A stretch of DNA of 64,000 nucleotides from an uncultured Spirochaetota bacterium (GTDB lineage: Bacteria; Spirochaetota; UBA4802; UBA5550): the NCBI GenBank assembly GCA_942493035.1, contig OW818666.1, positions 4,294,874-4,358,873 on the forward strand, read 5' to 3'. Both the position numbers and the translations under genes were made by a program. Numbering within the stretch: the stretch's first letter is position 1; every line of letters starts with the position of its first letter. This document shows, one piece after another, positions 42,229-63,632 of the stretch. The notes beneath the pieces are model-generated. The model did not search any database and had not been told where the DNA came from. It saw nothing but the letters and a program-made list of their open reading frames with translations.

Positions 42229-42273
42229 AACAAAGGCTAAACGCGGCGCTCGGAGTACCTCGCTTGGCCTTCG
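42229..42273 (+). repeat. attC 5' half (R'' side) between IS1182 and IS110
   Basis: AACAAAGGCTAAACGCGGCGCTCGGAGTACCTCGCTTGGCC. Confidence 0.7.
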
Positions 42274-43760: not shown

Positions 43761-43765
43761 CACAC

Positions 43766-44863: not shown

Positions 44864-44870
44864 AATTGCC

Positions 44871-45770: not shown

Positions 45771-45819
45771 CATAACGCCTTGCTTACACGACGTTGCGGC
45801 GGCCGTTTGCCGCAATGTG
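45771..45819 (-). repeat. attC 3' half (R' side) abutting IS110 copy 2
   Basis: CATAACGCCTTGCTTACACGACGTTGCGGCGGCCGTTTGCCGCAATGTG. Confidence 0.7.
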
Positions 45820-47306
45820 CCTATATGTTATGTTTGTATTAATTCAGATTTTTATTCTTTGTGTCATCTGAATTGATACTTATTCTTTTTATACTGGATA
45901 ATTCGGGAAGAACTCAATGTGCCTGCCTAACAAAGACTTCCTGCGGTTCTGTTCTCCCGAATTATATAACCTTTCAATACCATTTATAGTAAGTATGCTC
46001 CATCGAGAGCTCCTGATATATAGGCGAAATGGAATAAAAGGTTTCCACAATATCTATAAAAGGAGCGACTTATGAAAACTTACATTGGTATTGATTGGTC
46101 GTCAACACATGATGATGTATGTATTTTAAATGAAAAGGAGGAAGTTGTCAACAAGTTTCGTTTTGATGTAACGAAACAGGGCTTTAAGAAATTGATTGAT
46201 GCAATTGAAAATATACATTCTGCAAAGGAGGAAATTTTCATCGGTATTGAAACAGATAAAAATATTCTTGCGGATTATCTTCTTGCTTTAGGTTATCAGG
46301 TTTATGGATTGAATCCTTTTTGTGTTAATAGATTTAAAGACCGATATTCGGTGTCCTCAAAAAAAGATGATAACTTTGATGCGTACAATATTGCACTAAT
46401 ACTTTTTAAGGATTTTAATCGCTTTACCCCGATAATAAAATCTAGTAACAATTGTGAAGCGTTAAAAATGCACGGCAAAACACTTGAAATGCTTTTACAA
46501 GAAAAAACGCGTTTTGAAAACAGGTTGAAGAACGACTTGCATCAGTATTTCCCTATATTTACAGACTTTTTTGACGGTTTTACGAGCGTTCCACTGAATT
46601 TATTGAAAGTTTTAAATAAACCGGAACAGATAATAAATGCAACTTTCGAAGACTATCTTGAGTTGATTAAAGATGTTAAATATATGACTAAAAAAAGGAA
46701 GTCAGAATTTTATTGTTTATTAAAGGATCAAACAATATCTCCTAATAAAACTATACAGGAATGTTATTCCTTGAGAGTGTTGATTATTGTTGATCAATTA
46801 CTGTTCCTTATGAAATCGATAAAACAGGTAGAAGAAAAAATATTAATGTTGTACGCTGCGAATGAATATTCAACAATATTTTCTTCATTGCCGGGTGCTG
46901 CTGATCGACTAGCTCCAAGACTTTTAATGCATTTTGGGGATGTACAAAAGCGTTTTGAATCGTATCAAACTGTTCAATGTTATGCCGGTACATGTCCAGT
47001 AACAATTCAGAGTGGGAAATATTTACATGTCATTAAAATGCGAAGAGGTTGTAATAAATCATTTAGGGATACATTATATCAATTCTCATTTTGCAGTTTG
47101 AGCCTTGAAGCGTGGACTCGCGAATATTATGATCTATTACGTAAAAAAGGATGTAACCATTCTTCTGCTATTCGTGCTCTTTCGAATAAATGGGTTAAGA
47201 TAATATTTAGAATGTGGAAAGATAAAACTGTATATGATAAAGAGATTTTTCTTAAAAAAAGAAAAATTGCATGATTATTTTTTTAGAAAACTTGACATAG
47301 TAAGAC
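45820..47306 (+). mobile_element. IS110-family element, copy 2
   Basis: Identical to copy 1; inserted between ATGTG and GCGAAG of an attC centre. Confidence 0.8.
46072..47274 (+). CDS. IS110-family (DEDD) transposase
   Basis: 400 aa, identical to 42306-43508. Confidence 0.85.
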   Translation: MKTYIGIDWSSTHDDVCILNEKEEVVNKFRFDVTKQGFKKLIDAIENIHSAKEEIFIGIETDKNILADYLLALGYQVYGLNPFCVNRFKDRYSVSSKKDDNFDAYNIALILFKDFNRFTPIIKSSNNCEALKMHGKTLEMLLQEKTRFENRLKNDLHQYFPIFTDFFDGFTSVPLNLLKVLNKPEQIINATFEDYLELIKDVKYMTKKRKSEFYCLLKDQTISPNKTIQECYSLRVLIIVDQLLFLMKSIKQVEEKILMLYAANEYSTIFSSLPGAADRLAPRLLMHFGDVQKRFESYQTVQCYAGTCPVTIQSGKYLHVIKMRRGCNKSFRDTLYQFSFCSLSLEAWTREYYDLLRKKGCNHSSAIRALSNKWVKIIFRMWKDKTVYDKEIFLKKRKIA

Positions 47307-47355
47307 CGAAGGCCAAGCGAGGTACTCCGAGCGAAGCGTATAAGCTTTGTTATAT
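47307..47355 (-). repeat. attC 5' half (R'' side) after IS110 copy 2
   Basis: CGAAGGCCAAGCGAGGTACTCCGAGCGAAGCGTATAAGCTTTGTTATAT. Confidence 0.7.
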
Positions 47356-47422: not shown

Positions 47423-47758
47423 TTAACCTACTAATTTATACTTTTTTAAAGATGACTTATCTTTTTTAAGTATAGAAAGCATTCTTTGCGCTGGCCCTGC
47501 AGGATGATTCTTTCCTGATTCCCACGCCTCTACAGTTTTTTTTGAAACACCTAAAACGTATGCAAAGATTGATTGTGTTAAACCTAATTCATTTCGTATT
47601 TCCTTTATTTCTTTTCCTTTATAATCTGGAAGCGGGGCAACGGTCATAGTATGAGATTTTAGTCCTTTTACTTTTTCACCCTTTTCATATTTTATAGCTT
47701 CTTCTAATGAATTGATTAAATTTTCACCAATGGTTAAATCTTTATAAGTTTTTTTCAT
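47423..47758 (-). CDS. higA: HigA-like XRE-family HTH antitoxin
   Basis: HTH (IFAYVLGVSKKTVEAWESGK). Confidence 0.65.
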   Translation of the reverse strand: MKKTYKDLTIGENLINSLEEAIKYEKGEKVKGLKSHTMTVAPLPDYKGKEIKEIRNELGLTQSIFAYVLGVSKKTVEAWESGKNHPAGPAQRMLSILKKDKSSLKKYKLVG

Positions 47759-48101
47759 CTTTTTTTCTCCTTAATTCATTTTTAAGGTCTGTAACAAGTT
47801 GTTTTATTATTTTCTTTTCTTTATCACTGATATTGTCTTTCTGATTTTTAGAGTAAGCCATCAAGAGATATATTTTTTCATACACGATAAAGTCTATGTA
47901 TAGTACCCTTATACCGCCGCTTTTGCCTCTATTTTTTAGAGCCCACCTAATTTTTCTAACTCCTCCAGTGCCTTGTATCACCGAACCAGTTTCGGGGTTG
48001 ATGATTAAATATTCTTGGAGATCTTTCAAATCATCATCTGATAATCCAAGATCGTCCCAGGTTTTATTGAAAACATCAAAACTTACAAATTCAATTTTCA
48101 T
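47742..48101 (-). CDS. higB: HigB/RelE-like toxin
   Basis: GGIRVLY...YLL pattern of HigB/RelE toxins; start placed at MKIEFVSF. Confidence 0.6.
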   Translation of the reverse strand: MKIEFVSFDVFNKTWDDLGLSDDDLKDLQEYLIINPETGSVIQGTGGVRKIRWALKNRGKSGGIRVLYIDFIVYEKIYLLMAYSKNQKDNISDKEKKIIKQLVTDLKNELRRKKDEKNL

Positions 48102-48195
48102 ATTGCAAATATATGTCCTATTAGATAGGGTGTCAAGCAAAAAGTTTCATTAAAAAACCGGGCAGGACGCCCGGCCTTAATTTTTTGCCCAATGT

Positions 48196-48301
48196 CATAT
48201 AACGTCTTGCTTAAACGACGTTTGCCAGTTTCACGGTAAATTTTGTATTGAACGAGTTTACCCAACACAAAAAATATTTGCCACTGAAAGTTGGCAAATG
48301 T
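48196..48301 (-). repeat. attC 3' half split by IS21 copy A
   Basis: CATATAACGTCTTGCTTAAACGACGTTTGCC...GCCACTGAAAGTTGGCAAATGTG; the other half lies at 56511-56567. Confidence 0.7.
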
Positions 48302-48476
48302 GCGTATTCCGGCCCAAACCTGCCACTCATTCCGGAAAATGCCTGCCACCTGTTCCGGTGCAAAGTTGCCACCCATTCCGGTTGAAACCTGCCACTTTTA
48401 GGATTTTACCGGAATAAAAAACAAACCATTTCCTTTTAAAACAGAGCCTGATTAATCTGATAAAAAATCAAATCAG

Positions 48477-50054
48477 ATGGAGTTACCGGGCATGTCACAA
48501 AGGAGAATATCGATGAAAAAAATCAGAGAAATCATGCGTCTTCACGAGCAGTCAAAACTTAGTCAGAGACAGATATCCCAAGCCCTTGGAATGTCTCGTC
48601 CGGTCGTCAGCGATTATATTAACAAGGTTAAAACATTCGGATTAACTTTTATTGATATAGAAAATATGCCGGATGAAACGCTTCTAAATATTCTACAGGG
48701 AAATAAAACAGCAGACAATAAACGACATGAAATACTTCAAAAACAATTCCTTCATTTCACGCAGGAGCTAAAACGTCTCGGAGTGACTCGCCAAACTTTG
48801 TGGGAAGAATACATAGAGGAAAATCCAGACGGATACAGTTACTCGCAGTTTTGTTATCATTTTCAGATCTGGCAGAATATGTCAGAGATTACAATGCACA
48901 TTGAACATAAAGCGGGCGACAAACTCTTTGTGGATTTTGCCGGTAAGAAACTTGCCATAACAGACCGGACGACAGGAGAGATAAGAGAGGTTGAAGTTTT
49001 TGTAGCAATCCTGGGAGCAAGCCAGCTTGTCTATGTAGAAGCTTCAATGAGCCAGAAGAAGGAGGAATGGATAAGACTAAATGAAAATGCATTAAGATAC
49101 ATCGATGGTGTTCCACTGGCTATTGTGCCAGACTGCTTAAAATCGGCAGTAACAAAAACAGACAGATACGAACCGGATATCAATCCGGAGTATCTTGATT
49201 TTGCCAGACATTACGGCACAACAATACTTCCTGCACGACCTGCAAAACCGAAAGACAAAGCTCTGGTTGAAGGAGCTGTACGAATTTCATATTCATGGAT
49301 TTACGCCAAGCTTCGTGACCGTGTATTCTTTTCACTTGAAGAACTCAACGCTGCGATCATGGAGTTGCTTGAATCATTCAATTCCCGGACAATGCAGCGA
49401 CCTGGTGTAAGTCGACGGGAACTTTTTGACAGCATTGAAAAGAGTGAACTGCAGCCTCTTCCAGAGGATCTTTATGAAATCAAGAAGTTTAAAATCCTCA
49501 CAGTTCAATTTAACTATCATATCTATCTGAGTGATGACAGTCATTACTACAGTGTGCCATATCGCTATAAAGGGCGGAAAGTAGAAGTACTTTTCACAGA
49601 AAGAGCCGTAGAAGTCTATTGTGGCAACGTAAGAGTCGCCTCACATTTTAGAAACAGGAGAAAAAACGGATACACAACACAAAGGAATCATATGCCGGAA
49701 TCACACAAATGGGAGGATAATTGGAACCCGGAAAAACTGACCAATATTGCAAAACTAAAAGGCGATGCTGTGGTAACTGTAATTGAAATAGTTCTCTCCT
49801 CCCGGCAGCATCCTGAGCAGAGTTATAAAACATGCCTCGGAATATTTGCCCTAACTAAAACATATGGAGAAATCCGACTTAACCGTGCTTGTGAATTGGC
49901 TCTCTACTATGAAAACTGCACATACAAGATGATTAAAAATATTCTAAGCAACAACATGGATCAAGCAGGTGAAGAAGATAAAGACTCGGAATTCACCCTA
50001 CCTGAACATGATAACATAAGAGGCAATCAATATTACATGGAGGAATTACAATGA
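48477..50054 (+). CDS. istA: IS21-family transposase IstA
   Basis: 525 aa; HTH N-terminus, integrase core. Confidence 0.85.
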   Translation: MELPGMSQRRISMKKIREIMRLHEQSKLSQRQISQALGMSRPVVSDYINKVKTFGLTFIDIENMPDETLLNILQGNKTADNKRHEILQKQFLHFTQELKRLGVTRQTLWEEYIEENPDGYSYSQFCYHFQIWQNMSEITMHIEHKAGDKLFVDFAGKKLAITDRTTGEIREVEVFVAILGASQLVYVEASMSQKKEEWIRLNENALRYIDGVPLAIVPDCLKSAVTKTDRYEPDINPEYLDFARHYGTTILPARPAKPKDKALVEGAVRISYSWIYAKLRDRVFFSLEELNAAIMELLESFNSRTMQRPGVSRRELFDSIEKSELQPLPEDLYEIKKFKILTVQFNYHIYLSDDSHYYSVPYRYKGRKVEVLFTERAVEVYCGNVRVASHFRNRRKNGYTTQRNHMPESHKWEDNWNPEKLTNIAKLKGDAVVTVIEIVLSSRQHPEQSYKTCLGIFALTKTYGEIRLNRACELALYYENCTYKMIKNILSNNMDQAGEEDKDSEFTLPEHDNIRGNQYYMEELQ

Positions 50055-50809
50055 ACAATCAGGGAACGATTGAAAAGATGCAGGAAATGCGTCTTCACGG
50101 AATGCTCAGTTCATTCCGTGAAACATTCTCTACAGATATGAAAAACAAGTTTACGGTTGATGAAATGGTCGCTCATCTCATCGATGCTGAATGGGATGAA
50201 AGGTATAACAGGAAATTTAAAACTCTGCTTAAAAATGCAGCCTTTAGATATAAGGCAAGTGTTGAAGAGATAGATTTCAAACCATCACGAAAAATTGACA
50301 GAAATCTGATACTCAGATTCTCGACATGTGACTGGATCAAAAAAGGAGAGAGCATTATCATCACCGGTTCTACAGGTGCAGGTAAAAGTTTTATGGCCTG
50401 CGCACTTGGTCATAAAGCATGTATTCTTCGTTATCAGGTTGGATACTACAACTGCTTGAAATTGTTTTCACATCTGAAGTACTGTAAAGTTGATGGATCA
50501 TATTTTAAAGAGATGAATAAAATTAAAAAACTGGATTTGATAATTCTTGATGACTTCGGATTAAAGCCTTTTGATTCAGACTCGCGGTTAATGTTACTTG
50601 AGATGCTTGAAGATCGCCACGGCAGCAGATCGATAATTATTAGTTCTCAAATTCCTACAGATAAGTGGTTTGATCTTATTGGGGATGCGACTATTGCGGA
50701 TGCAATCTGTGATAGACTTCTTCATACTTCACATAAAATAGACATTAAAGGAGATTCTATGAGAAAGGAAAAATCAAAAAATTCTGGACGAAACCTGCCA
50801 CTTGAGTAA
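50051..50809 (+). CDS. istB: IS21-family helper ATPase IstB
   Basis: Walker A motif GSTGAGKSF, 252 aa. Confidence 0.85.
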   Translation: MNNQGTIEKMQEMRLHGMLSSFRETFSTDMKNKFTVDEMVAHLIDAEWDERYNRKFKTLLKNAAFRYKASVEEIDFKPSRKIDRNLILRFSTCDWIKKGESIIITGSTGAGKSFMACALGHKACILRYQVGYYNCLKLFSHLKYCKVDGSYFKEMNKIKKLDLIILDDFGLKPFDSDSRLMLLEMLEDRHGSRSIIISSQIPTDKWFDLIGDATIADAICDRLLHTSHKIDIKGDSMRKEKSKNSGRNLPLE

Positions 50810-51094
50810 TGGTTAGTTCGAAAATGGAAATGGATTAAAAGTGGTAAACTTAAAACCGGAATAGGTGGCAGGTTTCACCGGAATACGTAATTTTACCAGA
50901 TAATTTAATAAAACGTCGCGATGAATTGTTAAATTTAAAAAAAACATTATTAGGTGAATCGACTCAGAAAAATAAAACCACAGATTAAAAGTACATCCGT
51001 GTACTTTTAAAAATTTATAGTAATAAACGCCAAAAACATCGTACAACAAAGGCTAACAGCAGCGCCGGAGTACCGGCTTGGGCTTCGCCACATT

Positions 51095-52928
51095 GTGTGT
51101 CACGCAAGGAGTATAGAAGATGAAGGAGGGCCCTTCGGAGCCGGTATACAGGTACAGGCTTCAAACCGCCTTAAGCTGCATTGGTAAAGAGCTATTGTGG
51201 TGAGCGTTAAGGAAAAGGCGTGATAAACACGTCAGGTGCGTTACACGGAGACAAACGCAAGTGAATCATTGATGAGGTGTCGAAAGAGCCTACAGTTGAA
51301 GTCAAAACCGGGGTACAATGTGGATTTCGGGATAAATCTGAGAGAAACCTGTCTACTGCTCAGGTGGCTTCCGGCATAAAGATGGTGTGACTGTGTAACA
51401 GGCTTTTATATTCAACGTGAGAACCTGTCGTTTTGATGTTAAGGGAGAACTTCAAGCGGAGGCCCCGCGAGAAAGAGAGTACCGAAGCAAAGCACAGGGG
51501 CGGAGTGGTTCGTAGTAGTGAAGAAGTCTCTGTAATGGAGATGGAGCGAAGGAATCACGTTGTTCAGCTTTAAAGATTGATCAACCGGAAAACGGGAGGA
51601 GTTGATTGGATAAAGCAAAACCGTATTATATTTCCAAACATAATGTCTGGGAAAGCTACAAACAGGTAAAAGCAAACAGGGGTGCTCCCGGCGTTGATGG
51701 CGTAAATCTGGCAGATTTTGAGGCAGAATTGAAAAATAATCTGTATAAAATCTGGAACCGGATGTCATCTGGAAGTTATGTACCTTCTCCTGTGCGTCGG
51801 GTTGAGATACCGAAAAGCGATGGGAAAACCCGGACACTCGGGATTCCCACAGTGTCTGACCGGATAGCGCAGATGGTAGTCAAACGTGAGCTCGAACCGG
51901 TATTGGAAAAAGTATTTCATCACAGCTCTTACGGATATCGCCCGATGCGGTCTGCAAAAGATGCTGTTGCAAGTGCCCGTAAAAACTGCTGGAAATACGA
52001 CTGGGTGTTAGACATCGACATTAAAGGATTTTTCGATAATATCGATCATGACCTCATGATGAAAGCAGTACGTCGGCATACAGAAAGCGGATGGGTTAGA
52101 CTGTACATAGAGCGATGGCTGAAAGCACCCGTTATGACAACTGAAGAAGGCCTTCAGCAACGAACACAGGGAACACCTCAGGGCGGAGTGATAAGCCCGC
52201 TTCTTGCAAATCTGTTTCTTCATTATGCATTTGATGTCTGGATGGGGAAAAATTATCCGTCAGTATCTTTTGAAAGATATGCGGATGACTGTATCTGTCA
52301 CTGCCGCACTGAAGATGAGGCAGTCAGGCTGAAGGAAGCGCTGGAAAAGAGAATGGCTGAATGCAGGCTCGAACTCCATCCGGAAAAGACAAAGATAGTA
52401 TATTGTAGAGATGACGCAAGAAAGGGCAGCTACCCGGTAGAATGCTTTGATTTTCTGGGTTTTACATTTAAAGCACGAAGGTCAAAGACGAAGCATGGGA
52501 AATATTTTATCAACTTCAGTCCAGCGGCGAGTGATAAGGCATTGAAGAACATGAGAATAACCATGAAAGCGTGGAATGTTCATCAGCGAAGCAGAGAATC
52601 ACTTGAGGAATTATCCTGTAGGTTCAATGCGAAAATCAGAGGATGGATCAACTATTATGGGAGTTTTTACAGATCAGCGATGTACCCGACTTTACGTAAT
52701 TTTGATTTAATTCTTTCGAGATGGGCAATGAAGAAATATAAACGTTTAAGAAATCACAAACGGAGAGCCAGGCACTGGATAGAACGTATTGCGATGAAAG
52801 AGCCGTGTTTATTTTCGCATTGGAGAATTCTTTACGGTAACGGTTGAACAACAAGAGCCGGATGAATCGAGAGATTCACGTCCGGTTCCGTGAGAGCGTA
52901 GAGGGGAGGTTCCTCTGCGCCACTCGAC
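51095..52928 (+). mobile_element. group II intron, copy 2
   Basis: Identical to copy 1. Confidence 0.85.
51606..52847 (+). CDS. group II intron RT/maturase
   Basis: Identical 413-aa ORF. Confidence 0.9.
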   Translation: MDKAKPYYISKHNVWESYKQVKANRGAPGVDGVNLADFEAELKNNLYKIWNRMSSGSYVPSPVRRVEIPKSDGKTRTLGIPTVSDRIAQMVVKRELEPVLEKVFHHSSYGYRPMRSAKDAVASARKNCWKYDWVLDIDIKGFFDNIDHDLMMKAVRRHTESGWVRLYIERWLKAPVMTTEEGLQQRTQGTPQGGVISPLLANLFLHYAFDVWMGKNYPSVSFERYADDCICHCRTEDEAVRLKEALEKRMAECRLELHPEKTKIVYCRDDARKGSYPVECFDFLGFTFKARRSKTKHGKYFINFSPAASDKALKNMRITMKAWNVHQRSRESLEELSCRFNAKIRGWINYYGSFYRSAMYPTLRNFDLILSRWAMKKYKRLRNHKRRARHWIERIAMKEPCLFSHWRILYGNG

Positions 52929-53092
52929 AGCAACCTAATGTGGCTGAATACTTTTTGTTTTGGGCAAACTGATTTTTAAAAAAAATGAGTTGTTAAACTC
53001 GCTAACGTCAGTTAGCCAAGACGTTATATGTAATGGCAACAAAATTTAAGACCGGGCGTCCATGCCCGGAGAGAAAAGAGGAAATTAATCCT

Positions 53093-53806
53093 ATGAATAA
53101 AATTATAACAGTCGCATTTATTCTATTATTCTTTTCAAAAAGCTATTCTGCAGATAAACACTTATTGATATTTAAACCAATTGAAAACTTGAAATATAAA
53201 ATACAGATTCAGCCTGCTCCAGAATCAGTAATATTAAATAAACTTTTTGGTGCGTATTCTTCCAATAGCATTTTTAAGATGTCTATCAAGGAAAATGATA
53301 AAAATACTTACAAAGTAACATCTTCCTTGATAATATTTAATAAATCAAGCTGTTGTAATCCACTAACTTATCCTGGTTATTTTATTACAACAGATAGAGA
53401 AATTGAAAATATCATAAGCCCTACCGGAGAATTTATTGATAATAGTAATGACTATCTATCAATGGGATGCATATTTGGCTTTAACATTTTAAAACTCAAT
53501 AATAAAGAGAAAAACATTAAACCAGTGATAATTCCTTTTTATTTCCCTGATAAAGAAATTTCAATTGGTGAATCATGGACCTGTAAATTTGAATTTGATG
53601 ATAATGTAAATGCTAACCCATTGTTCATTGATTATACAATAAAAAAAGTATCTGATAATATTGCATATATAGATGGTTACAGTTTAGATAGATTACATAT
53701 CACTGCACAATTTAATATTACAAAAGGTTGTTGGACTAACTATAAGATGTTCGTCAAAAAAGATTCAGAAGAATATTTATTTAAAAGTTTTGAGTTAATA
53801 GAATAG
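53093..53806 (+). CDS. secreted/lipoprotein-like cassette protein
   Basis: Signal peptide MNKIITVAFILLFFSKSYSA; identical to 60970-61683 on the opposite strand; the ORF-track N-terminal extension is translation of the upstream hairpin. Confidence 0.6.
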   Translation: MNKIITVAFILLFFSKSYSADKHLLIFKPIENLKYKIQIQPAPESVILNKLFGAYSSNSIFKMSIKENDKNTYKVTSSLIIFNKSSCCNPLTYPGYFITTDREIENIISPTGEFIDNSNDYLSMGCIFGFNILKLNNKEKNIKPVIIPFYFPDKEISIGESWTCKFEFDDNVNANPLFIDYTIKKVSDNIAYIDGYSLDRLHITAQFNITKGCWTNYKMFVKKDSEEYLFKSFELIE

Positions 53807-53924
53807 GCACAATGCCTTCGCCCATCCGTGGGCTACGGCAGACCGAACTTTGTGTAAATGTTGCCACTACATATAACAAAGGCTAACAGCGGCGCCGGAG
53901 TACCGGCTTGGGCTTCGCCACATT

Positions 53925-55758
53925 GTGTGTCACGCAAGGAGTATAGAAGATGAAGGAGGGCCCTTCGGAGCCGGTATACAGGTACAGGCTTCAAACCGCC
54001 TTAAGCTGCATTGGTAAAGAGCTATTGTGGTGAGCGTTAAGGAAAAGGCGTGATAAACACGTCAGGTGCGTTACACGGAGACAAACGCAAGTGAATCATT
54101 GATGAGGTGTCGAAAGAGCCTACAGTTGAAGTCAAAACCGGGGTACAATGTGGATTTCGGGATAAATCTGAGAGAAACCTGTCTACTGCTCAGGTGGCTT
54201 CCGGCATAAAGATGGTGTGACTGTGTAACAGGCTTTTATATTCAACGTGAGAACCTGTCGTTTTGATGTTAAGGGAGAACTTCAAGCGGAGGCCCCGCGA
54301 GAAAGAGAGTACCGAAGCAAAGCACAGGGGCGGAGTGGTTCGTAGTAGTGAAGAAGTCTCTGTAATGGAGATGGAGCGAAGGAATCACGTTGTTCAGCTT
54401 TAAAGATTGATCAACCGGAAAACGGGAGGAGTTGATTGGATAAAGCAAAACCGTATTATATTTCCAAACATAATGTCTGGGAAAGCTACAAACAGGTAAA
54501 AGCAAACAGGGGTGCTCCCGGCGTTGATGGCGTAAATCTGGCAGATTTTGAGGCAGAATTGAAAAATAATCTGTATAAAATCTGGAACCGGATGTCATCT
54601 GGAAGTTATGTACCTTCTCCTGTGCGTCGGGTTGAGATACCGAAAAGCGATGGGAAAACCCGGACACTCGGGATTCCCACAGTGTCTGACCGGATAGCGC
54701 AGATGGTAGTCAAACGTGAGCTCGAACCGGTATTGGAAAAAGTATTTCATCACAGCTCTTACGGATATCGCCCGATGCGGTCTGCAAAAGATGCTGTTGC
54801 AAGTGCCCGTAAAAACTGCTGGAAATACGACTGGGTGTTAGACATCGACATTAAAGGATTTTTCGATAATATCGATCATGACCTCATGATGAAAGCAGTA
54901 CGTCGGCATACAGAAAGCGGATGGGTTAGACTGTACATAGAGCGATGGCTGAAAGCACCCGTTATGACAACTGAAGAAGGCCTTCAGCAACGAACACAGG
55001 GAACACCTCAGGGCGGAGTGATAAGCCCGCTTCTTGCAAATCTGTTTCTTCATTATGCATTTGATGTCTGGATGGGGAAAAATTATCCGTCAGTATCTTT
55101 TGAAAGATATGCGGATGACTGTATCTGTCACTGCCGCACTGAAGATGAGGCAGTCAGGCTGAAGGAAGCGCTGGAAAAGAGAATGGCTGAATGCAGGCTC
55201 GAACTCCATCCGGAAAAGACAAAGATAGTATATTGTAGAGATGACGCAAGAAAGGGCAGCTACCCGGTAGAATGCTTTGATCTTCTGGGTTTTACATTTA
55301 AAGCACGAAGGTCAAAGACGAAGCATGGGAAATATTTTATCAACTTCAGTCCAGCGGCGAGTGATAAGGCATTGAAGAACATGAGAATAACCATGAAAGC
55401 GTGGAATGTTCATCAGCGAAGCAGAGAATCACTTGAGGAATTATCCTGTAGGTTCAATGCGAAAATCAGAGGATGGATCAACTATTATGGGAGTTTTTAC
55501 AGATCAGCGATGTACCCGACTTTACGTAATTTTGATTTAATTCTTTCGAGATGGGCAATGAAGAAATATAAACGTTTAAGAAATCACAAACGGAGAGCCA
55601 GGCACTGGATAGAACGTATTGCGATGAAAGAGCCGTGTTTATTTTCGCATTGGAGAATTCTTTACGGTAACGGTTGAACAACAAGAGCCGGATGAATCGA
55701 GAGATTCACGTCCGGTTCCGTGAGAGCGTAGAGGGGAGGTTCCTCTGCGCCACTCGAC
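53925..55758 (+). mobile_element. group II intron, copy 3
   Basis: Identical except for one substitution (F to L in the RT). Confidence 0.85.
54436..55677 (+). CDS. group II intron RT/maturase
   Basis: 413 aa. Confidence 0.9.
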   Translation: MDKAKPYYISKHNVWESYKQVKANRGAPGVDGVNLADFEAELKNNLYKIWNRMSSGSYVPSPVRRVEIPKSDGKTRTLGIPTVSDRIAQMVVKRELEPVLEKVFHHSSYGYRPMRSAKDAVASARKNCWKYDWVLDIDIKGFFDNIDHDLMMKAVRRHTESGWVRLYIERWLKAPVMTTEEGLQQRTQGTPQGGVISPLLANLFLHYAFDVWMGKNYPSVSFERYADDCICHCRTEDEAVRLKEALEKRMAECRLELHPEKTKIVYCRDDARKGSYPVECFDLLGFTFKARRSKTKHGKYFINFSPAASDKALKNMRITMKAWNVHQRSRESLEELSCRFNAKIRGWINYYGSFYRSAMYPTLRNFDLILSRWAMKKYKRLRNHKRRARHWIERIAMKEPCLFSHWRILYGNG

Positions 55759-55861
55759 GCGCAAAAGGCCGCGCAACGTCGGGTAAGCAAGACGTTATGT
55801 GCCATTTTTTTTCTTGACTTTACACATAGAATTGTGTAAATTATTCAGAGAGGTTATTTAT

Positions 55862-56059
55862 ATGGCTACTAATTTAAATATCGATATGAAACTGTTAGAT
55901 GAAGTTTATCAAATAGGAAATTTCAAAACAAAAAAAGAAGCAGTAAACGTCGCGCTTAAGGAATATATTCAGAAACATAGACAAAAAGACATTTTGAAAT
56001 ATCTAAATGCTGTTGATTTTGATAAAGACTATGATTACAAAAAAGCTCGAAATAGATGA
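55862..56059 (+). CDS. VapB-like antitoxin
   Basis: Small ORF (MATNLNIDMKLLDEV...) with stop/start overlap with the PIN gene. Confidence 0.55.
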   Translation: MATNLNIDMKLLDEVYQIGNFKTKKEAVNVALKEYIQKHRQKDILKYLNAVDFDKDYDYKKARNR

Positions 56060-56493
56060 CAAGATTCATTATAGATACATCCGTATGGTCAGAAGCACTT
56101 CGACGAAAGAAGAAAACTGTAAATTCGTCAGATACTATTGTTAGAAAGATTATAGAAAATGATGATGAAATTGTTGTTGTAGGCATTATCCTTCAAGAAA
56201 TTCTAACTAGCATTGCAGATGAAAAACTGTTTAGAGAAATTAAAGATATCCTGGATGATTTTTTATATTTAGATATTACAAAAAATGATTTCATTTACGC
56301 TTCCGAGTTAAATAATAAATGCAGATCTAAAGGAATTAATGCTGGATCAATTGATTTTTTAATTGCAAGCGTTGCCATCAGAAACGAACTAGAATTGGTC
56401 ACTTTCGACAAAGACTTTTTTAATATTAGCAAGTATACAGATTTAAAAATTTTAGACGTAGGCCGTTTCCTTGATAATAAAACTGAAAATTAA
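56056..56493 (+). CDS. vapC: PIN-domain toxin VapC
   Basis: IIDTSVW...TFDKDF PIN motifs. Confidence 0.75.
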   Translation: MTRFIIDTSVWSEALRRKKKTVNSSDTIVRKIIENDDEIVVVGIILQEILTSIADEKLFREIKDILDDFLYLDITKNDFIYASELNNKCRSKGINAGSIDFLIASVAIRNELELVTFDKDFFNISKYTDLKILDVGRFLDNKTEN

Positions 56494-56510
56494 ACCGAAA
56501 AAAAACGGCA

Positions 56511-56567
56511 CATAACAAAGCTTAAACGCAGCGCTCGGAGTACCTCGCTTGGTCTGCGCCACATTTA
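56511..56567 (+). repeat. attC 5' half split by IS21 copy B
   Basis: CATAACAAAGCTTAAACGCAGCGCTCGGAGTACCTCGCTTGGTCTGCGCCACATTTA. Confidence 0.7.
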
Positions 56568-56645
56568 CGTATTCCGGTGAAACCTGCCACCTATTCCGGT
56601 TTTAAGTTTACCACTTTTAATCCATTTCCATTTTCGAACTAACCA

Positions 56646-57404
56646 TTACTCAAGTGGCAGGTTTCGTCCAGAATTTTTTGATTTTTCCTTTCTCATAGAA
56701 TCTCCTTTAATGTCTATTTTATGTGAAGTATGAAGAAGTCTATCACAGATTGCATCCGCAATAGTCGCATCCCCAATAAGATCAAACCACTTATCTGTAG
56801 GAATTTGAGAACTAATAATTATCGATCTGCTGCCGTGGCGATCTTCAAGCATCTCAAGTAACATTAACCGCGAGTCTGAATCAAAAGGCTTTAATCCGAA
56901 GTCATCAAGAATTATCAAATCCAGTTTTTTAATTTTATTCATCTCTTTAAAATATGATCCATCAACTTTACAGTACTTCAGATGTGAAAACAATTTCAAG
57001 CAGTTGTAGTATCCAACCTGATAACGAAGAATACATGCTTTATGACCAAGTGCGCAGGCCATAAAACTTTTACCTGCACCTGTAGAACCGGTGATGATAA
57101 TGCTCTCTCCTTTTTTGATCCAGTCACATGTCGAGAATCTGAGTATCAGATTTCTGTCAATTTTTCGTGATGGTTTGAAATCTATCTCTTCAACACTTGC
57201 CTTATATCTAAAGGCTGCATTTTTAAGCAGAGTTTTAAATTTCCTGTTATACCTTTCATCCCATTCAGCATCGATGAGATGAGCGACCATTTCATCAACC
57301 GTAAACTTGTTTTTCATATCTGTAGAGAATGTTTCACGGAATGAACTGAGCATTCCGTGAAGACGCATTTCCTGCATCTTTTCAATCGTTCCCTGATTGT
57401 TCAT
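56646..57404 (-). CDS. istB: IstB ATPase
   Basis: Identical to 50051-50809. Confidence 0.85.
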   Translation of the reverse strand: MNNQGTIEKMQEMRLHGMLSSFRETFSTDMKNKFTVDEMVAHLIDAEWDERYNRKFKTLLKNAAFRYKASVEEIDFKPSRKIDRNLILRFSTCDWIKKGESIIITGSTGAGKSFMACALGHKACILRYQVGYYNCLKLFSHLKYCKVDGSYFKEMNKIKKLDLIILDDFGLKPFDSDSRLMLLEMLEDRHGSRSIIISSQIPTDKWFDLIGDATIADAICDRLLHTSHKIDIKGDSMRKEKSKNSGRNLPLE

Positions 57405-58978
57405 TGTAATTCCTCCATGTAATATTGATTGCCTCTTATGTTATCATGTTCAGGTAGGGTGAATTCCGAGTCTTTATCTTCTTCACCTGCTTGATCCATG
57501 TTGTTGCTTAGAATATTTTTAATCATCTTGTATGTGCAGTTTTCATAGTAGAGAGCCAATTCACAAGCACGGTTAAGTCGGATTTCTCCATATGTTTTAG
57601 TTAGGGCAAATATTCCGAGGCATGTTTTATAACTCTGCTCAGGATGCTGCCGGGAGGAGAGAACTATTTCAATTACAGTTACCACAGCATCGCCTTTTAG
57701 TTTTGCAATATTGGTCAGTTTTTCCGGGTTCCAATTATCCTCCCATTTGTGTGATTCCGGCATATGATTCCTTTGTGTTGTGTATCCGTTTTTTCTCCTG
57801 TTTCTAAAATGTGAGGCGACTCTTACGTTGCCACAATAGACTTCTACGGCTCTTTCTGTGAAAAGTACTTCTACTTTCCGCCCTTTATAGCGATATGGCA
57901 CACTGTAGTAATGACTGTCATCACTCAGATAGATATGATAGTTAAATTGAACTGTGAGGATTTTAAACTTCTTGATTTCATAAAGATCCTCTGGAAGAGG
58001 CTGCAGTTCACTCTTTTCAATGCTGTCAAAAAGTTCCCGTCGACTTACACCAGGTCGCTGCATTGTCCGGGAATTGAATGATTCAAGCAACTCCATGATC
58101 GCAGCGTTGAGTTCTTCAAGTGAAAAGAATACACGGTCACGAAGCTTGGCGTAAATCCATGAATATGAAATTCGTACAGCTCCTTCAACCAGAGCTTTGT
58201 CTTTCGGTTTTGCAGGTCGTGCAGGAAGTATTGTTGTGCCGTAATGTCTGGCAAAATCAAGATACTCCGGATTGATATCCGGTTCGTATCTGTCTGTTTT
58301 TGTTACTGCCGATTTTAAGCAGTCTGGCACAATAGCCAGTGGAACACCATCGATGTATCTTAATGCATTTTCATTTAGTCTTATCCATTCCTCCTTCTTC
58401 TGGCTCATTGAAGCTTCTACATAGACAAGCTGGCTTGCTCCCAGGATTGCTACAAAAACTTCAACCTCTCTTATCTCTCCTGTCGTCCGGTCTGTTATGG
58501 CAAGTTTCTTACCGGCAAAATCCACAAAGAGTTTGTCGCCCGCTTTATGTTCAATGTGCATTGTAATCTCTGACATATTCTGCCAGATCTGAAAATGATA
58601 ACAAAACTGCGAGTAACTGTATCCGTCTGGATTTTCCTCTATGTATTCTTCCCACAAAGTTTGGCGAGTCACTCCGAGACGTTTTAGCTCCTGCGTGAAA
58701 TGAAGGAATTGTTTTTGAAGTATTTCATGTCGTTTATTGTCTGCTGTTTTATTTCCCTGTAGAATATTTAGAAGCGTTTCATCCGGCATATTTTCTATAT
58801 CAATAAAAGTTAATCCGAATGTTTTAACCTTGTTAATATAATCGCTGACGACCGGACGAGACATTCCAAGGGCTTGGGATATCTGTCTCTGACTAAGTTT
58901 TGACTGCTCGTGAAGACGCATGATTTCTCTGATTTTTTTCATCGATATTCTCCTTTGTGACATGCCCGGTAACTCCAT
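57401..58978 (-). CDS. istA: IstA transposase
   Basis: Identical to 48477-50054. Confidence 0.85.
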   Translation of the reverse strand: MELPGMSQRRISMKKIREIMRLHEQSKLSQRQISQALGMSRPVVSDYINKVKTFGLTFIDIENMPDETLLNILQGNKTADNKRHEILQKQFLHFTQELKRLGVTRQTLWEEYIEENPDGYSYSQFCYHFQIWQNMSEITMHIEHKAGDKLFVDFAGKKLAITDRTTGEIREVEVFVAILGASQLVYVEASMSQKKEEWIRLNENALRYIDGVPLAIVPDCLKSAVTKTDRYEPDINPEYLDFARHYGTTILPARPAKPKDKALVEGAVRISYSWIYAKLRDRVFFSLEELNAAIMELLESFNSRTMQRPGVSRRELFDSIEKSELQPLPEDLYEIKKFKILTVQFNYHIYLSDDSHYYSVPYRYKGRKVEVLFTERAVEVYCGNVRVASHFRNRRKNGYTTQRNHMPESHKWEDNWNPEKLTNIAKLKGDAVVTVIEIVLSSRQHPEQSYKTCLGIFALTKTYGEIRLNRACELALYYENCTYKMIKNILSNNMDQAGEEDKDSEFTLPEHDNIRGNQYYMEELQ

Positions 58979-59069
58979 CTGATTTGATTTTTTATCAGAT
59001 TAATCAGGCTCTGTTTTAAAAGGAAATGGTTTGTTTTTTATTCCGGTAAAATCCTAAAAGTGGCAGGTT

Positions 59070-59435
59070 TCAACCGGAATGGGTGGCAACTTTGCACCGG
59101 AACAGGTGGCAGGCATTTTCCGGAATGAGTGGCAGGTTTGGGCCGGAATACGCAAAAATATAGATTTGGAATAAAACTTCAGCTATTGAGGCTAACATTA
59201 TTCTTATGTGTTTACTTTCCCATTTATCATAAGAATTTTCATGAACTTTCGAACTTGTTAATTCTTGAATGGTAATGAGTGTATCAAAATACAATGGATC
59301 AACATTGGAGAATATTTTTTTTAAAGCTTTTATTCTTGCATTATAGTCAGAACCATCAGCATTATGTTTATGTGCGAGTTCATATATTATTTTCCTGATA
59401 CAAACAGAGCTACCTGTTAAAAAATTATTTTTCAA
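59070..59435 (-). pseudogene. cassette ORF with its 3' end fused to or interrupted by the IS21 copy B terminus
   Basis: The last 25 codons or so are read from the IS21 end sequence. Confidence 0.5.
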
Positions 59436-59504
59436 ACAGCCTTCGGCTTCAAAAAATAATTCTCTTAATGATTTCGGAATGTTTTCATCTAAGACAAAGC
59501 TTGA

Positions 59505-59816
59505 TTATGGGATTGATAAAAAAATATATTTATCTAAGTCTGAAATAACCTCGTGATGTTTAGCTAATTGTGTCGCTGTAAATTTTCCATTTATATTAAA
59601 TGGTATAATCTTATCTGAAAAATGGATTGAAATTTTATTACATGAATCACATTGAATCTGATATAAATGACATTCTTTTTCATTAGTCCAATCAAATGTA
59701 AATTCATCAAGAAAAGAAAATTGAACATGCCTTCTTTTACAAAAAGGACAATTGTAGGTATGAGAATCAATAAAATACTTATTATCCAAGTTACTTTGAT
59801 CATATGTTTTTTTCAT
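59505..59816 (-). CDS. Cys-rich (CxxC...CxxC) small cassette protein
   Basis: 103 aa with CPFC...CDSC; in the same cassette as 59070-59435, with no attC between them. Confidence 0.5.
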   Translation of the reverse strand: MKKTYDQSNLDNKYFIDSHTYNCPFCKRRHVQFSFLDEFTFDWTNEKECHLYQIQCDSCNKISIHFSDKIIPFNINGKFTATQLAKHHEVISDLDKYIFLSIP

Positions 59817-59882: not shown

Positions 59883-59981
59883 GTACAACGTCTTGCTTAC
59901 CCGACGTCGCGCGGCCTTTTGCGCGATGTGGCGAAGCCCAAGTGAGGTACTCCGAACGCCGCGGGTAAGCTTTGTTATATG
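59883..59981 (-). repeat. attC-like site (type GCTTACCCG)
   Basis: GTACAACGTCTTGCTTACCCGACGTCGCGCGGCCTTTTGCGCGATGTGGCGAAGCCCAAGTGAGGTACTCCGAACGCCGCGGGTAAGCTTTGTTATAT. Confidence 0.75.
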
Positions 59982-60066
59982 ATGCGACGTGCGTTGATAA
60001 AAAAAGGAATTAAAAAAAAGGCATAGTTTACCTACTATGCCTTCAGAAATAGTTCAATGGGTAAGG

Positions 60067-60639
60067 TTATTTTAATTTTATAGCAATTTTCTTTTCAATT
60101 TGAGCATCAGTATATTTAGGGAATGATTTTTTAAAATTTGATATATCCACTATGGAATTGTCTGCAATATCGATTCTAGTTAAATACACCCTCGTCCCCT
60201 TATCAACTTTCTGATTAGTAAGATATGCAGTGAGCTGACCTATGTAATTTATTTTATTTTCATCTATGGTAAACTTATAGCCGTACATTGCTTTGTTGAT
60301 ATCACTTAAATTTGAAAAGTAAACTGGACCAGCTCCACTATGTAATTGTACTGAATCAAGAATGTATTCACCTTTTGGTAAATATAAGTATTGGGTATTA
60401 CCTGATAAACTGTTCCGATAATAATATGATATATTAGTTTCAGTATTTTTAATCCAAATAGTCATAGGTACTTTTGAAAAACTATTATCCCAAGAGTTTG
60501 AAAATTGGAACACTAAAATTCCAATTCCATTATTATCCTGAAGTGTGTCACTGCTTTTTAAAACATGCGGTGCAGAGCTACAGCCTATTAAAAACAAAAG
60601 CATAAGTATTGAAATAAAATAAATTTGAATTTTTTTCAC
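60067..60639 (-). CDS. lipoprotein (GTG start)
   Basis: Signal peptide with lipobox LIGCSS. Confidence 0.6.
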   Translation of the reverse strand: MKKIQIYFISILMLLFLIGCSSAPHVLKSSDTLQDNNGIGILVFQFSNSWDNSFSKVPMTIWIKNTETNISYYYRNSLSGNTQYLYLPKGEYILDSVQLHSGAGPVYFSNLSDINKAMYGYKFTIDENKINYIGQLTAYLTNQKVDKGTRVYLTRIDIADNSIVDISNFKKSFPKYTDAQIEKKIAIKLK

Positions 60640-60750
60640 GAATAGACCTCTTTTTTAAATTTTTCATAAGTATTCATTTTTTCGTATATGTCAATTACTA
60701 TTTTATAGCGTACTGTTTTTTATGGATATAGAAAGTTAAGCACGTCGTTT

Positions 60751-60906
60751 CATATAACGTCTTGGCTAACTGACGATAGCGAGTTTTACAACTAATTTTT
60801 TTTAAAATCAGTTTGCCAGGTACTAAAAGTATTCAGCCACATTAGGTTGCTAATGTGGCGAAGCCCAAGCCGGTACTCCGGCGCCGCTGTTAGCCTTTGT
60901 TATATG
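60751..60906 (-). repeat. attC-like site (type GGCTAAC)
   Basis: CATATAACGTCTTGGCTAACTGACGATAGCGAG...GCCACATTAGGTTGCTAATGTGGCGAAGCCCAAGCCGGTACTCCGGCGCCGCTGTTAGCCTTTGTTATAT. Confidence 0.75.
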
Positions 60907-60969
60907 TAGTGGCAACATTTACACAAAGTTCGGTCTGCCGTAGCCCACGGATGGGCGAAGGCATTGTGC

Positions 60970-61683
60970 CTATTCTATTAACTCAAAACTTTTAAATAAA
61001 TATTCTTCTGAATCTTTTTTGACGAACATCTTATAGTTAGTCCAACAACCTTTTGTAATATTAAATTGTGCAGTGATATGTAATCTATCTAAACTGTAAC
61101 CATCTATATATGCAATATTATCAGATACTTTTTTTATTGTATAATCAATGAACAATGGGTTAGCATTTACATTATCATCAAATTCAAATTTACAGGTCCA
61201 TGATTCACCAATTGAAATTTCTTTATCAGGGAAATAAAAAGGAATTATCACTGGTTTAATGTTTTTCTCTTTATTATTGAGTTTTAAAATGTTAAAGCCA
61301 AATATGCATCCCATTGATAGATAGTCATTACTATTATCAATAAATTCTCCGGTAGGGCTTATGATATTTTCAATTTCTCTATCTGTTGTAATAAAATAAC
61401 CAGGATAAGTTAGTGGATTACAACAGCTTGATTTATTAAATATTATCAAGGAAGATGTTACTTTGTAAGTATTTTTATCATTTTCCTTGATAGACATCTT
61501 AAAAATGCTATTGGAAGAATACGCACCAAAAAGTTTATTTAATATTACTGATTCTGGAGCAGGCTGAATCTGTATTTTATATTTCAAGTTTTCAATTGGT
61601 TTAAATATCAATAAGTGTTTATCTGCAGAATAGCTTTTTGAAAAGAATAATAGAATAAATGCGACTGTTATAATTTTATTCAT
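60970..61683 (-). CDS. secreted/lipoprotein-like cassette protein (duplicate of 53093-53806)
   Basis: Identical amino-acid sequence; start placed at MNKII after the RBS. Confidence 0.6.
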   Translation of the reverse strand: MNKIITVAFILLFFSKSYSADKHLLIFKPIENLKYKIQIQPAPESVILNKLFGAYSSNSIFKMSIKENDKNTYKVTSSLIIFNKSSCCNPLTYPGYFITTDREIENIISPTGEFIDNSNDYLSMGCIFGFNILKLNNKEKNIKPVIIPFYFPDKEISIGESWTCKFEFDDNVNANPLFIDYTIKKVSDNIAYIDGYSLDRLHITAQFNITKGCWTNYKMFVKKDSEEYLFKSFELIE

Positions 61684-61745
61684 AGGATTAATTTCCTCTT
61701 TTCTCTCCGGGCATGGACGCCCGGTCTTAAATTTTGTTGCCATTA

Positions 61746-61903
61746 CATATAACGTCTTGCTTATACGACGCTTGCCAAGTTTACTGGAAATTTTATATTC
61801 TATAAGTTTATACAAATCAAGTAGTTTTTTGCCACGACAAGTGGCAAGTGTGGCGAAGCCCAAGCGAGGTACTCCGAGCGCAGCGTATAAGCTTTGTTAT
61901 ATG
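61746..61903 (-). repeat. attC-like site (type GCTTATACG)
   Basis: CATATAACGTCTTGCTTATACGACGCTTGCC...GTGGCGAAGCCCAAGCGAGGTACTCCGAGCGCAGCGTATAAGCTTTGTTATAT. Confidence 0.75.
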
Positions 61904-61940
61904 GCGTAGCAAAAAATTGCAGAATCAATTTTCAATAAAA

Positions 61941-62315
61941 CTATAAGTATTTTTCTTCTTTACTTAAAAGCGAATTTAATTTTTTATCAAGTGACCAAAT
62001 CGGAGCATTTATTTTTCTTGCAGTAACAATTATAAAACTATCAATTATTCCAACACCAATAGAAGTGAGTTTATTTATCGAAGAATATTTACCTGCTTCA
62101 ATCCATCCATTTTCAATAATTGCTTTTGGAAGATTTTCCCAGTATAGTGAAATAATTTCTATTTCACGTTTGCTTTTTGCTCCTTGAAGTAATTCTCCAA
62201 AAATGCACTCGATAGCTAATACTTTTCGATTTTCCAACAAATCTTTAACTTTAGAATAGTATTCTGGTTTATTTTTCAAGAATTCAATCCAGATTGAGGT
62301 ATCAAGAATTATCAT
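61941..62315 (-). CDS. vapC: PIN-domain toxin VapC
   Basis: MIILDTSIWIEF...; overlaps the antitoxin gene by 4 bp. Confidence 0.75.
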   Translation of the reverse strand: MIILDTSIWIEFLKNKPEYYSKVKDLLENRKVLAIECIFGELLQGAKSKREIEIISLYWENLPKAIIENGWIEAGKYSSINKLTSIGVGIIDSFIIVTARKINAPIWSLDKKLNSLLSKEEKYL

Positions 62316-62527
62316 CTTTTCCTATTAACTTCACGTACTTTAGCAGCAGAGAAATCTTTTGAAAACTGCAATGGTTTCTTTGATATTTCATCGTTTAAGG
62401 CATGAACTTTTTTTAAAGAAAGCCATTCTTCTAGTGCAGTCACGAGACTTTCGGTAAGGTTTTTCCCACCTGCGAAATGTTTTACATCATTGACTAGTTC
62501 ATCTGGTATAAGTGCTGTTACTTTCAT
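62312..62527 (-). CDS. VapB-like antitoxin
   Basis: 71-aa ORF upstream of and coupled to the PIN gene. Confidence 0.6.
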   Translation of the reverse strand: MKVTALIPDELVNDVKHFAGGKNLTESLVTALEEWLSLKKVHALNDEISKKPLQFSKDFSAAKVREVNRKR

Positions 62528-62604
62528 GATGTAAATATACGATATTTTATCGTATATGTCAAGAGGAAATTTAAGTTTTATGGCAGATTGTTTTTTTTGC
62601 TATG

Positions 62605-62763
62605 CCATATAACGTCTTGGCTAACTGACGTTAGCGAGTTTTACAACCTATTTTTTTTAAAATCTTTTTGCCACGTACTAAAAGTGTTCAGCCACATTAG
62701 GTTGCTAATGTGGCCTCTGGCCCAAGCCGGTACTCCGGCGCCGCTGTTAGCCTTTGTTATATG
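62605..62763 (-). repeat. attC-like site (type GGCTAAC)
   Basis: R''/R' pair CATATAAC...GTTATATG flanking GGCTAAC...GTTAGCC. Confidence 0.75.
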
Positions 62764-62832
62764 ATGCGACGTGCCTTCACGCAAAGTTTTGATGGGTTAA
62801 TACACGGATGTATTAACCCAATACAAATAATT

Positions 62833-63363: not shown

Positions 63364-63412
63364 CCTCTCCGCGCACGGACGCGCGGTCTTTAAAAGTTTG
63401 GGCACGTCGTTT

Positions 63413-63568
63413 CATATAACGTCTTGGCTAAACGACGTTTGCCAAGTTTACTAAAAATTTTATACTGAATGAGTTTATACAAATCAAGAAGTTTTTGCCA
63501 CGATTAAGTGGCAAATGTGGCGAAGCCCAAGCCGGTACTCCGGCGCCGCGTTTAGCCTTTGTTATATG
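63413..63568 (-). repeat. attC-like site
   Basis: CATATAACGTCTTGGCTAAACGACGTTTGCCAAG...GTGGCGAAGCCCAAGCCGGTACTCCGGCGCCGCGTTTAGCCTTTGTTATAT. Confidence 0.75.
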
Positions 63569-63632
63569 AAGTGACGTGCCTTACATATAAAGTTTGTCGA
63601 GTACACGGACGTACGAGACTGCTGATAATCGG

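Follow-up and report, generated by a model that had tools for sequence, protein, structure and literature searches.

What placed 5.7 kb of cassettes and introns on the strand opposite to the rest of the gene-cassette array in this window, the whole stretch of 64,000 nucleotides analysed here? The block lies between two inverted copies of an IS21-family element, and a first-pass annotation, quoting flanking sequences that are found as written in the window, proposed that an inversion between the copies had flipped it. The observation is real and the interpretation as an inversion is supported, with corrections to the duplication, to the limits of the segment and to the number of insertion sites.

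About 15 attC sites, with paired covarying arms and ATAAC / GTTAT cores, lie between single-gene cassettes from 33.9 to 63.6 kb, and 21-32.5 kb is occupied by ordinary chromosomal genes. No tyrosine-recombinase match (intI) was obtained among the ORFs scanned with Pfam and NCBIfam, a scan in which 1-21 kb was only sampled. Within the window the array is an attC cluster without integrase, and intI, if present, lies beyond position 64000.

Two identical IS21-family copies in opposite orientation

The arms of an inverted repeat (48301-50890 and 56565-59154; 2,590 nt, 100% complementary, 5,674 nt apart) contain two IS21-family copies of 2,589 bp each, 100% identical and oppositely oriented inside the cassette array (Table 1). 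IstA is a member of NCBIfam NF033546 (transpos_IS21; 249 bits, cut-off 160) and also matches Pfam rve and Mu-transpos_C_2, and IstB belongs to PF01695 (IstB_IS21; 211 bits). The istB gene lies directly downstream of istA, its start (50051) overlapping the end of the istA ORF (50054), and the terminal inverted repeats, TGCGTATTCCGG and TACGTATTCCGG, carry repeated ATTCCGG...CTGCCAC units.

The ends of both window copies were set from an independent copy of the element in a JGI metagenome contig (L001), which is 97% identical, likewise 2,589 bp long, reads TGCG...ACGCA and has its own 4-bp duplication, AGAG; the independent duplication length comes from this copy only. A genome scan with the right-end 24-mer gave 13 matches in MAGs, mostly at contig ends, two of which reach both IS ends (L005, L010) and show no clean duplication; the window's genome is absent from the GTDB representatives carrying this IS in that scan. 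The left end of the element is TG. Both window copies end in TA; of the 14 related copies, 13 end in CA and one in CG. The terminal base of the window copies is derived and common to the two (...ACGTA versus ...ACGCA or ...ACGCG). Direct target duplications in the IS21 family are 4-8 bp long. For IS5376, a duplication of 5 bp and a reactive CA at the terminus are reported (PMC10122671). The overlapping istA and istB genes, multi-repeat terminal inverted repeats, TG left end and short duplications are those of the family (IS21, IS5376), whereas the TA terminus departs from the usual CA, with which the Spirochaetota MAG relatives end.

Table 1 Coordinates of the IS21-family copies, the split targets and the flipped segment.
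Feature	Position	Strand	Remarks
Half of split attC	48198-48300	-	Arm ATAACGTCTTGCTTAAACG as read on +; cassette with RelE-like/HTH gene pair 47423-48140
Target-site duplication 1, copy a (AATG)	48297-48300	+	Adjoins left end of copy A
IS21-family copy A	48301-50889	+	istA 48477-50054, istB 50051-50809; termini TG...TA
Target-site duplication 2, copy a (ATTTT)	50890-50894	+	Adjoins right end of copy A
Inverted segment	50890-56565	+	5,676 bp; cassette genes, attCs and two group II introns now on +
3' part of 251-aa cassette gene	50890-50988	+	Last 32 codons and stop; split off by IS insertion and inversion
attC of 251-aa gene cassette, interrupted by group II intron	51036-53033	+	Intron 51096-52928, RT/maturase 51606-52847
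257-aa cassette ORF	53033-53806	+	Weak DUF6263 match
attC interrupted by group II intron	53865-55805	+	Intron 53926-55758
vapB-vapC toxin-antitoxin cassette	55799-56493	+	
Other half of split attC	56505-56561	+	Arm CGTTTAAGC on reverse complement
Target-site duplication 1, copy b (AATG on minus; CATT on +)	56562-56565	-	Adjoins right end of copy B
IS21-family copy B, identical to copy A	56566-59154	-	istB 56646-57404, istA 57401-58978
Target-site duplication 2, copy b (ATTTT on minus)	59155-59159	-	Adjoins left end of copy B
5' part of 251-aa cassette gene	59155-59816	-	Codons 1-220; in-frame TAA at 59505-59507

Target-site duplications are crossed between the copies

Read in element orientation, copy A is flanked in the present order by AATG on its left and ATTTT on its right, and copy B by ATTTT on its left and AATG on its right. 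The first-pass annotation had named clean duplication pairs in the present orientation as speaking against its own proposal, and neither copy turns out to be bounded by one; both crossed pairs of flanks match. Crosswise-matching repeats, with no direct repeat belonging to either copy, are the textbook signature of IS-mediated inversion, and compared with classical IS-mediated inversions with exchanged target-site duplications the locus shows the same signature without essential difference, here with duplications of unequal length (AATG, 4 bp; ATTTT, 5 bp). The probability of a fixed-register match in the window is 0.0057 for the 4-mer and 0.0015 for the 5-mer, and the joint probability of about 9e-6 excludes chance; the complementarity of the attC arms and the continuity of the interrupted gene, described below, are independent of these short matches.

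Besides the exact IS ends, three details of the original proposal change. The 7-bp repeat AAATGTG that it reported is a mis-parse, in which AATG is the duplication and the rest consists of the first TG and the last A of the IS. The flipped segment, given as 50887-56567, becomes 50890-56565. Finally, in place of the one inserted IS there are two target sites, the second being in the ORF of a 251-aa cassette gene, where the ATTTT pair had been overlooked.

The flanks also bear on whether the IS21 copies and the 5.7 kb between them moved in together as a composite transposon, or whether the integron integrase inverted the segment between opposed attCs. Two IS copies do bracket the segment, and the array is rich in attCs. 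The outer flanks, however, which on the plus strand read AAATG (left) and AAAAT (right), are not a direct repeat, which rejects the composite transposon, and insertion as a unit is rejected by the attC and the 251-aa gene, each split between the inside and the outside of the segment. Breakpoints at the IS ends, and not at the GTT cores of attCs, reject an integrase-mediated inversion. We give either origin almost no credence.

Both interrupted targets can be rebuilt

Position 48300 joined to the reverse complement from 56561 gives GGCAAATGTGGCGCAGACC, a junction motif also present in an intact attC at 63412-63572 (GGCAAATGTGGCG), and the contiguous site across the junction contains GTTGGCAAATGTGGCGCAGACC. 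The arms GCTTAAACG (48201) and CGTTTAAGC (56513) each occur only once in the window, and their complementarity to one another is exact. At 163 nt the rebuilt attC is of normal length; its alignment to five of the window's intact attCs has no gap at the junction, and the whole site folds from one end to the other. A scan with the attC arm found one metagenome contig (L016) in which a natural attC with these arms stands uninterrupted beside different cassettes; since the attC is homologous but the cassettes are others, this contig backs the reconstruction without showing the ancestral order. The proposal that the left flank of copy A and the flank of copy B rejoin into one attC is borne out by three mutually independent features of the site: its arms, its normal length and fold, and its natural counterpart. 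A 24-mer across the rebuilt junction had 0 matches in the metagenome contigs scanned.

At the second junction, the reverse complement of the sequence from 59155 followed by the sequence from 50895 rebuilds a protein of 251 aa (junction region CAAATCTATATTTTACCAGAT), the removal of exactly 5 bp preserving the reading frame. The protein aligns with homologues of about 250 aa over 94-100% of its length and across the junction, the best of them with 73% identity and 100% coverage. Conserved residues flank the junction on both sides, with the invariant residues P222 and R229 beyond it. No Pfam domain was found in the rebuilt protein, the expected DUF4145 match being absent. The rebuilt gene is the strongest evidence for the proposed reading.

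Origin of the flipped segment

It is fairly probable that the two inverted IS21 copies inserted separately, and that reciprocal homologous recombination then flipped 50890-56565. Within a cassette array on the minus strand, an IS21-family element would have come to occupy two oppositely oriented positions separated by 5.7 kb: an attC, at GGCA[AATG]TGGCG, and codons 220-221 of the 251-aa cassette gene, at TAT[ATTTT]ACC. A reciprocal exchange between the identical inverted copies would have inverted the sequence between them, such that each IS retained its own left flank and gained the right flank of the other copy. Carried to the plus strand would be two cassettes (vapBC and the DUF6263-like one), the 3' part of the interrupted gene, and a pair of group II introns, each lodged in an attC. 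The sequence itself shows the pair of copies with their ends, the crossing of the duplications and the two targets once rebuilt; we infer this order of events and an exchange of the RecA type. When the inversion is undone and the IS copies are removed, the attC array is uniformly oriented from 44 to 64 kb; the inversion, with its crossed duplications and two rebuilt targets, accounts for the plus-strand block as originally suggested. Against this account stand the unequal lengths of the two duplications and the outcome of the genome and metagenome scans, in which neither the un-inverted nor the IS-free order was found in any related genome or metagenome contig; because the copies are 100% identical, moreover, the point of crossover is invisible. 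Given perfect inverted homology over 2.6 kb, the segment probably still flips in the population at low frequency.

The same product could arise in a single step, if a single IS21, or a tandem (IS21)2 whose ends abut, sitting at one of the two sites had attacked the other on the same chromosome. IS21 is known to act via tandem copies handled by a cointegrase isoform, as is also mentioned in PMC10122671. Such an intramolecular transposition would create the inverted second copy at the same time as it flipped the segment, with a new 4- or 5-bp duplication inverted at the two new junctions, and it predicts what is observed, namely the old duplication split between the left of copy A and the right of copy B, and the new one between the left of copy B and the right of copy A. 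Complete identity of the copies and the derived ...ACGTA end that they have in common would likewise be expected of a direct product, but both fit two recent insertions from one source copy equally well. Moreover, the single step needs replicative transposition or an earlier tandem dimer, and there is no trace of either. No sequence feature separates it from recombination, as the final structure is the same. Two insertions and a RecA-type recombination are favoured over this route, which we regard as possible though rather unlikely. If true, a one-event origin would make the locus a naturally occurring record of inversion coupled to transposition, by an element whose right terminus, TA, is non-canonical and whose family is usually said to move via tandem intermediates or ones with abutted ends.

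Short reads cannot settle how a segment is oriented when it lies between perfect 2.6-kb inverted repeats, which raises the question of an assembly artefact or a mixed population, with a true or majority order that is un-inverted and in which each IS has its own duplication. In that order both insertions would be quite ordinary, each with a direct duplication (4 and 5 bp), as a mis-oriented scaffold would show. The contig, however, crosses intron, IS110, IS30-like and duplicated-cassette repeats at which a short-read assembly would break, and its continuity through them points to long reads, which would easily span 2.6 kb. We consider this explanation improbable.

Comparison with known inversions and context of the array

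In the chromosomal integron of Vibrio cholerae, two IS3 copies were shown experimentally to have inverted 79 kb (PMC11023631). As in that case, an inverted IS pair lies here in a chromosomal cassette array, with at least one copy in a cassette coding sequence, and recombination would flip the cassettes in between, toxin-antitoxin ones included. In contrast to V. cholerae, the element is of the IS21 family, the flip covers only 5.7 kb, the host is apparently spirochaete-like, and the flip was deduced from crossed duplications rather than observed. In chromosomal integrons, how attCs fold and how fast excision proceeds depend on the orientation of cassettes relative to replication (PMC11023631), and IS-bounded flips are thus one way in which arrays are reshaped. 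In this array an effect on cassette excision is doubtful, since introns or the IS already break up all three attCs of the flipped block, and the functional consequence of the flip is probably small. The events have inactivated the 251-aa cassette gene and one attC, and the flip explains why cassettes and introns over 5.7 kb face the other way. The locus is a clean but ordinary instance of a well-known type of bacterial rearrangement, and a compact case found in nature, in a spirochaete-like lineage that has been little studied.

The array hosts four kinds of mobile element. The contig contains three 1.8-kb introns (98-99% identical over the aligned 300 nt), a 1.5-kb IS110 pair (100%), a 1.1-kb IS30-like pair and a 0.9-kb duplicated cassette; the IS30-like pair has no crossed duplications in either configuration. 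The 257-aa cassette ORF has a 99% identical copy in opposite orientation at 60852-61784. The attC at 53865-55805 is chimeric, combining arms of two different attC types. Exact-protein look-ups of vapC, a 103-aa ORF, the RelE-like ORF and HtpG returned no entry on record. The flanks of IS copies outside the window contain no attC motifs and give no sign that the element targets attCs. A weak hint may lie in an AATGT / ATGTA / TGTAA motif, which stands at the start of, or within, three of the 14 outside right-end flanks (L002, L004, L008), as in the right flank of copy B, AATGTGG.

Two inverted IS21-family copies and a flipped segment

A repeat search identified a perfect inverted repeat (arms of 2,590 nt, 100% complementary, spaced 5,674 nt apart). 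Each arm carries two ORFs overlapping by 4 nt, of 525 aa (249 bits against the NCBIfam IS21-family transposase model, cut-off 160) and 252 aa (211 bits against Pfam IstB_IS21), with repeated ATTCCGG…CTGCCAC units at the ends. Judged by these matches, the repeat is an IS21-family insertion sequence in two copies of opposite orientation, A and B. The IS ends were set with L001, a JGI metagenome contig reached by exact-protein look-up using IstB; its related copy (97% DNA identity) reads TGCGTATTCC…GGAATACGCA over 2,589 bp with direct AGAG on both sides. These ends and flanks delimit the window elements as tabulated, the 2,590th identical base of the repeat reading as flank, not IS.

Scanning representative genomes for the right-end 24-mer of the IS recovered 13 further copies, ten in Spirochaetota/Leptospirales MAGs and the rest in an Armatimonadota, an unclassified and a Hyphomicrobiales bin. 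All terminate in …ACGCA bar one (…ACGCG), while copies A and B end in …ACGTA (TA at 50888-50889 and 56566-56567). Thirteen of 14 related copies have a reactive CA terminus and the other CG. The content of the left part of the window and the predominance of Spirochaetota/Leptospirales among the IS relatives suggest a Leptospirales-like host.

Coordinates of features in the window
Feature	Coordinates	Strand	Remarks
Ordinary chromosome	1-32500		HtpG, SppA, chemotaxis receptors, Lsa66-like OmpA adhesin
DUF772 transposase fragment	32629-33060		truncated
303-nt inverted repeat	32668-32970 / 40649-40951		98%
IS30-like pair	34740-35843; 43766-44869	+; -	99% identical
Group II introns	37551-39383; 51096-52928; 53926-55758		98-99% over aligned 300 nt
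DDE transposase gene	40643-42115		full, 490 aa
IS110-family elements	42229-43764; 45816-47351	-; +	in 100% identical repeat arms; 400-aa DEDD transposase
attC motifs, one direction	44994; 47321; 59946-63534		
attC motifs, opposite direction	51066; 53896; 56536		
IS21 repeat arms	48301-50890 / 56565-59154		
IS21-family copy A	48301-50889	+	flanks, own orientation: left …GGCAAATG; right ATTTTACCAG…
IS21-family copy B	56566-59154	-	flanks, own orientation: left …CTATATTTT; right AATGTGGCGCAG…
Flipped segment	50890-56565		3' end of broken gene, DUF6263-like cassette, vapBC cassette, two group II introns
DUF6263-like cassette with attC	52992-53924; 60852-61784		99% identity
Chimeric attC	53865-53925 (5'); 55759-55805 (3')		GGCTAACAG type, 150-nt attC; GCTTACCCG type, 90-nt attC

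Crossed target duplications

The first-pass annotation had proposed an IS21-mediated inversion and held that duplications proper to each copy in the present orientation would speak against it; comparison of both flank pairs found no direct repeat around copy A or copy B. Instead, the flanks match crosswise: AATG is common to A-left and B-right, and ATTTT to B-left and A-right. In this AT-rich window, the chance of a match at fixed register is 0.0057 for the 4-mer and 0.0015 for the 5-mer, together ~9e-6. The duplications differ in length (4 vs 5 bp), both inside the range of the IS21 family, and the AGAG of L001 is likewise of 4 bp. A 5-bp duplication is recorded for IS5376 (PMC10122671).

With both crossed pairs matching and both targets rebuilt, the proposed inversion is supported, although several details of that annotation change. 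Its 7-bp repeat AAATGTG is a real match that parses as AATG plus the first bases (TG) and last base (A) of the IS; its flipped interval, 50887-56567, is corrected by the L001-derived ends; and its attC target stands, but a second target, a cassette gene with the ATTTT duplication, had been overlooked.

Two rebuilt targets

When 48300 is joined to 56561 in reverse complement, the product is a 163-nt site that aligns gap-free at the junction with five intact attCs from the window; the junction, GGCAAATGTGGCG, exactly matches site 63412-63572, and both ends pair in the fold. The variable arms are stronger evidence than alignment or fold. In every intact attC of the array the two arms complement each other, and their sequences differ by type (GGCTAACTG/CTGTTAGCC; GCTTACCCG/CGGGTAAGC; GCTTATACG/CGTATAAGC), and arms GCTTAAACG at 48201 and CGTTTAAGC at 56513 are exact complements, each occurring once in the window. 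In metagenome contig L016 the same pair of arms belongs to an uninterrupted attC, whose contiguous left and right parts align to 48200-48303 and 56566-56509, bearing out the earlier claim that the split halves rejoin as one attC.

At the second junction, a minus-strand ORF starting at 59816 enters copy B at 59155. Joined to 50895 onward with one ATTTT removed, its frame stays open through a further 30 codons until the stop at 50986-50988, beyond which lie a hairpin and an attC. Full-length homologues of the rebuilt 251-aa protein, ~250 aa long, number in the hundreds (best, 73% identity at 100% coverage). Nine aligned sequences show no indel at the junction, with invariant residues before (Y219) and after it (P222, R229). 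This is independent proof that both gene parts originally adjoined each other and that the duplication is of exactly 5 bp. The gene also contains an in-frame TAA (59505-59507) at a position occupied by Ser or Thr in the eight homologues aligned, and was therefore either inactivated twice or is affected by a sequencing error.

Origin of the inversion

By attC direction, the segment between the copies is inverted relative to both flanks. In-silico un-inversion and IS removal give an array of uniform orientation from 44 to 64 kb, accounting, as had been suggested, for the plus-strand cassettes and introns. Neither a composite transposon nor an integrase-mediated inversion is compatible with the splitting of the attC and of the gene.

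Two IS21 insertions would have come first, and the inverted copies would then have recombined with each other in a reciprocal homologous exchange; this course of events is the standard reading and, we consider, the probable one. The same process was seen experimentally in the chromosomal integron of Vibrio cholerae, between two IS3 copies (PMC11023631). Alternatively, the element at one site may have transposed intramolecularly into the other, creating the second inverted copy and the inversion in a single step. This route is expected to give an identical product, and the perfect copy identity and common unusual TA terminus are compatible with either process; we regard the single-step route as rather unlikely. 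Mis-oriented assembly of the segment is more doubtful still: the contig crosses several other long near-identical repeats, arguing for long-read data. Exact-protein look-ups and genome and metagenome 24-mer scans found no relative with the ancestral or an IS-free order.

Since each of the three attC sites in the flipped block is already interrupted, the flip probably has little functional impact. The two copies of the DUF6263-like cassette now lie in opposite orientations; in the un-inverted order they would have formed direct repeats.

Other mobile elements in the array

The locus is a well-supported yet ordinary IS-mediated inversion, a process already known, and the surrounding array holds more unusual features, among them the introns, IS110 and IS30-like elements and a chimeric attC. 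No intI was detected among window ORFs scanned with Pfam/NCBIfam (1-21 kb sampled only).

Each of the three near-identical group II introns lies inside an attC, inserted after GCCACATT. Published group IIC-attC introns are antisense to cassettes (PMC3001079), whereas the two in the flipped segment share the strand of the adjoining cassette ORFs and could splice out of cassette transcripts. The second intron interrupts an attC of chimeric make-up, suggesting a deletion via recombination between two intron copies. Both IS110-family elements lie inside an attC near AATGTGG, antisense to cassettes, resembling the IS1111-attC group. The IS21 copy, introns and IS110-family elements are inserted at the same few attC bases.

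The inverted IS30-like pair flanks 35.8-43.8 kb. Here, too, the attC sites run opposite to those on either side, making this interval a candidate for a second inversion; neither configuration of the pair shows a target duplication. The 303-nt repeat joins the DUF772 fragment and the DDE transposase gene, which represent a further IS family in the array.
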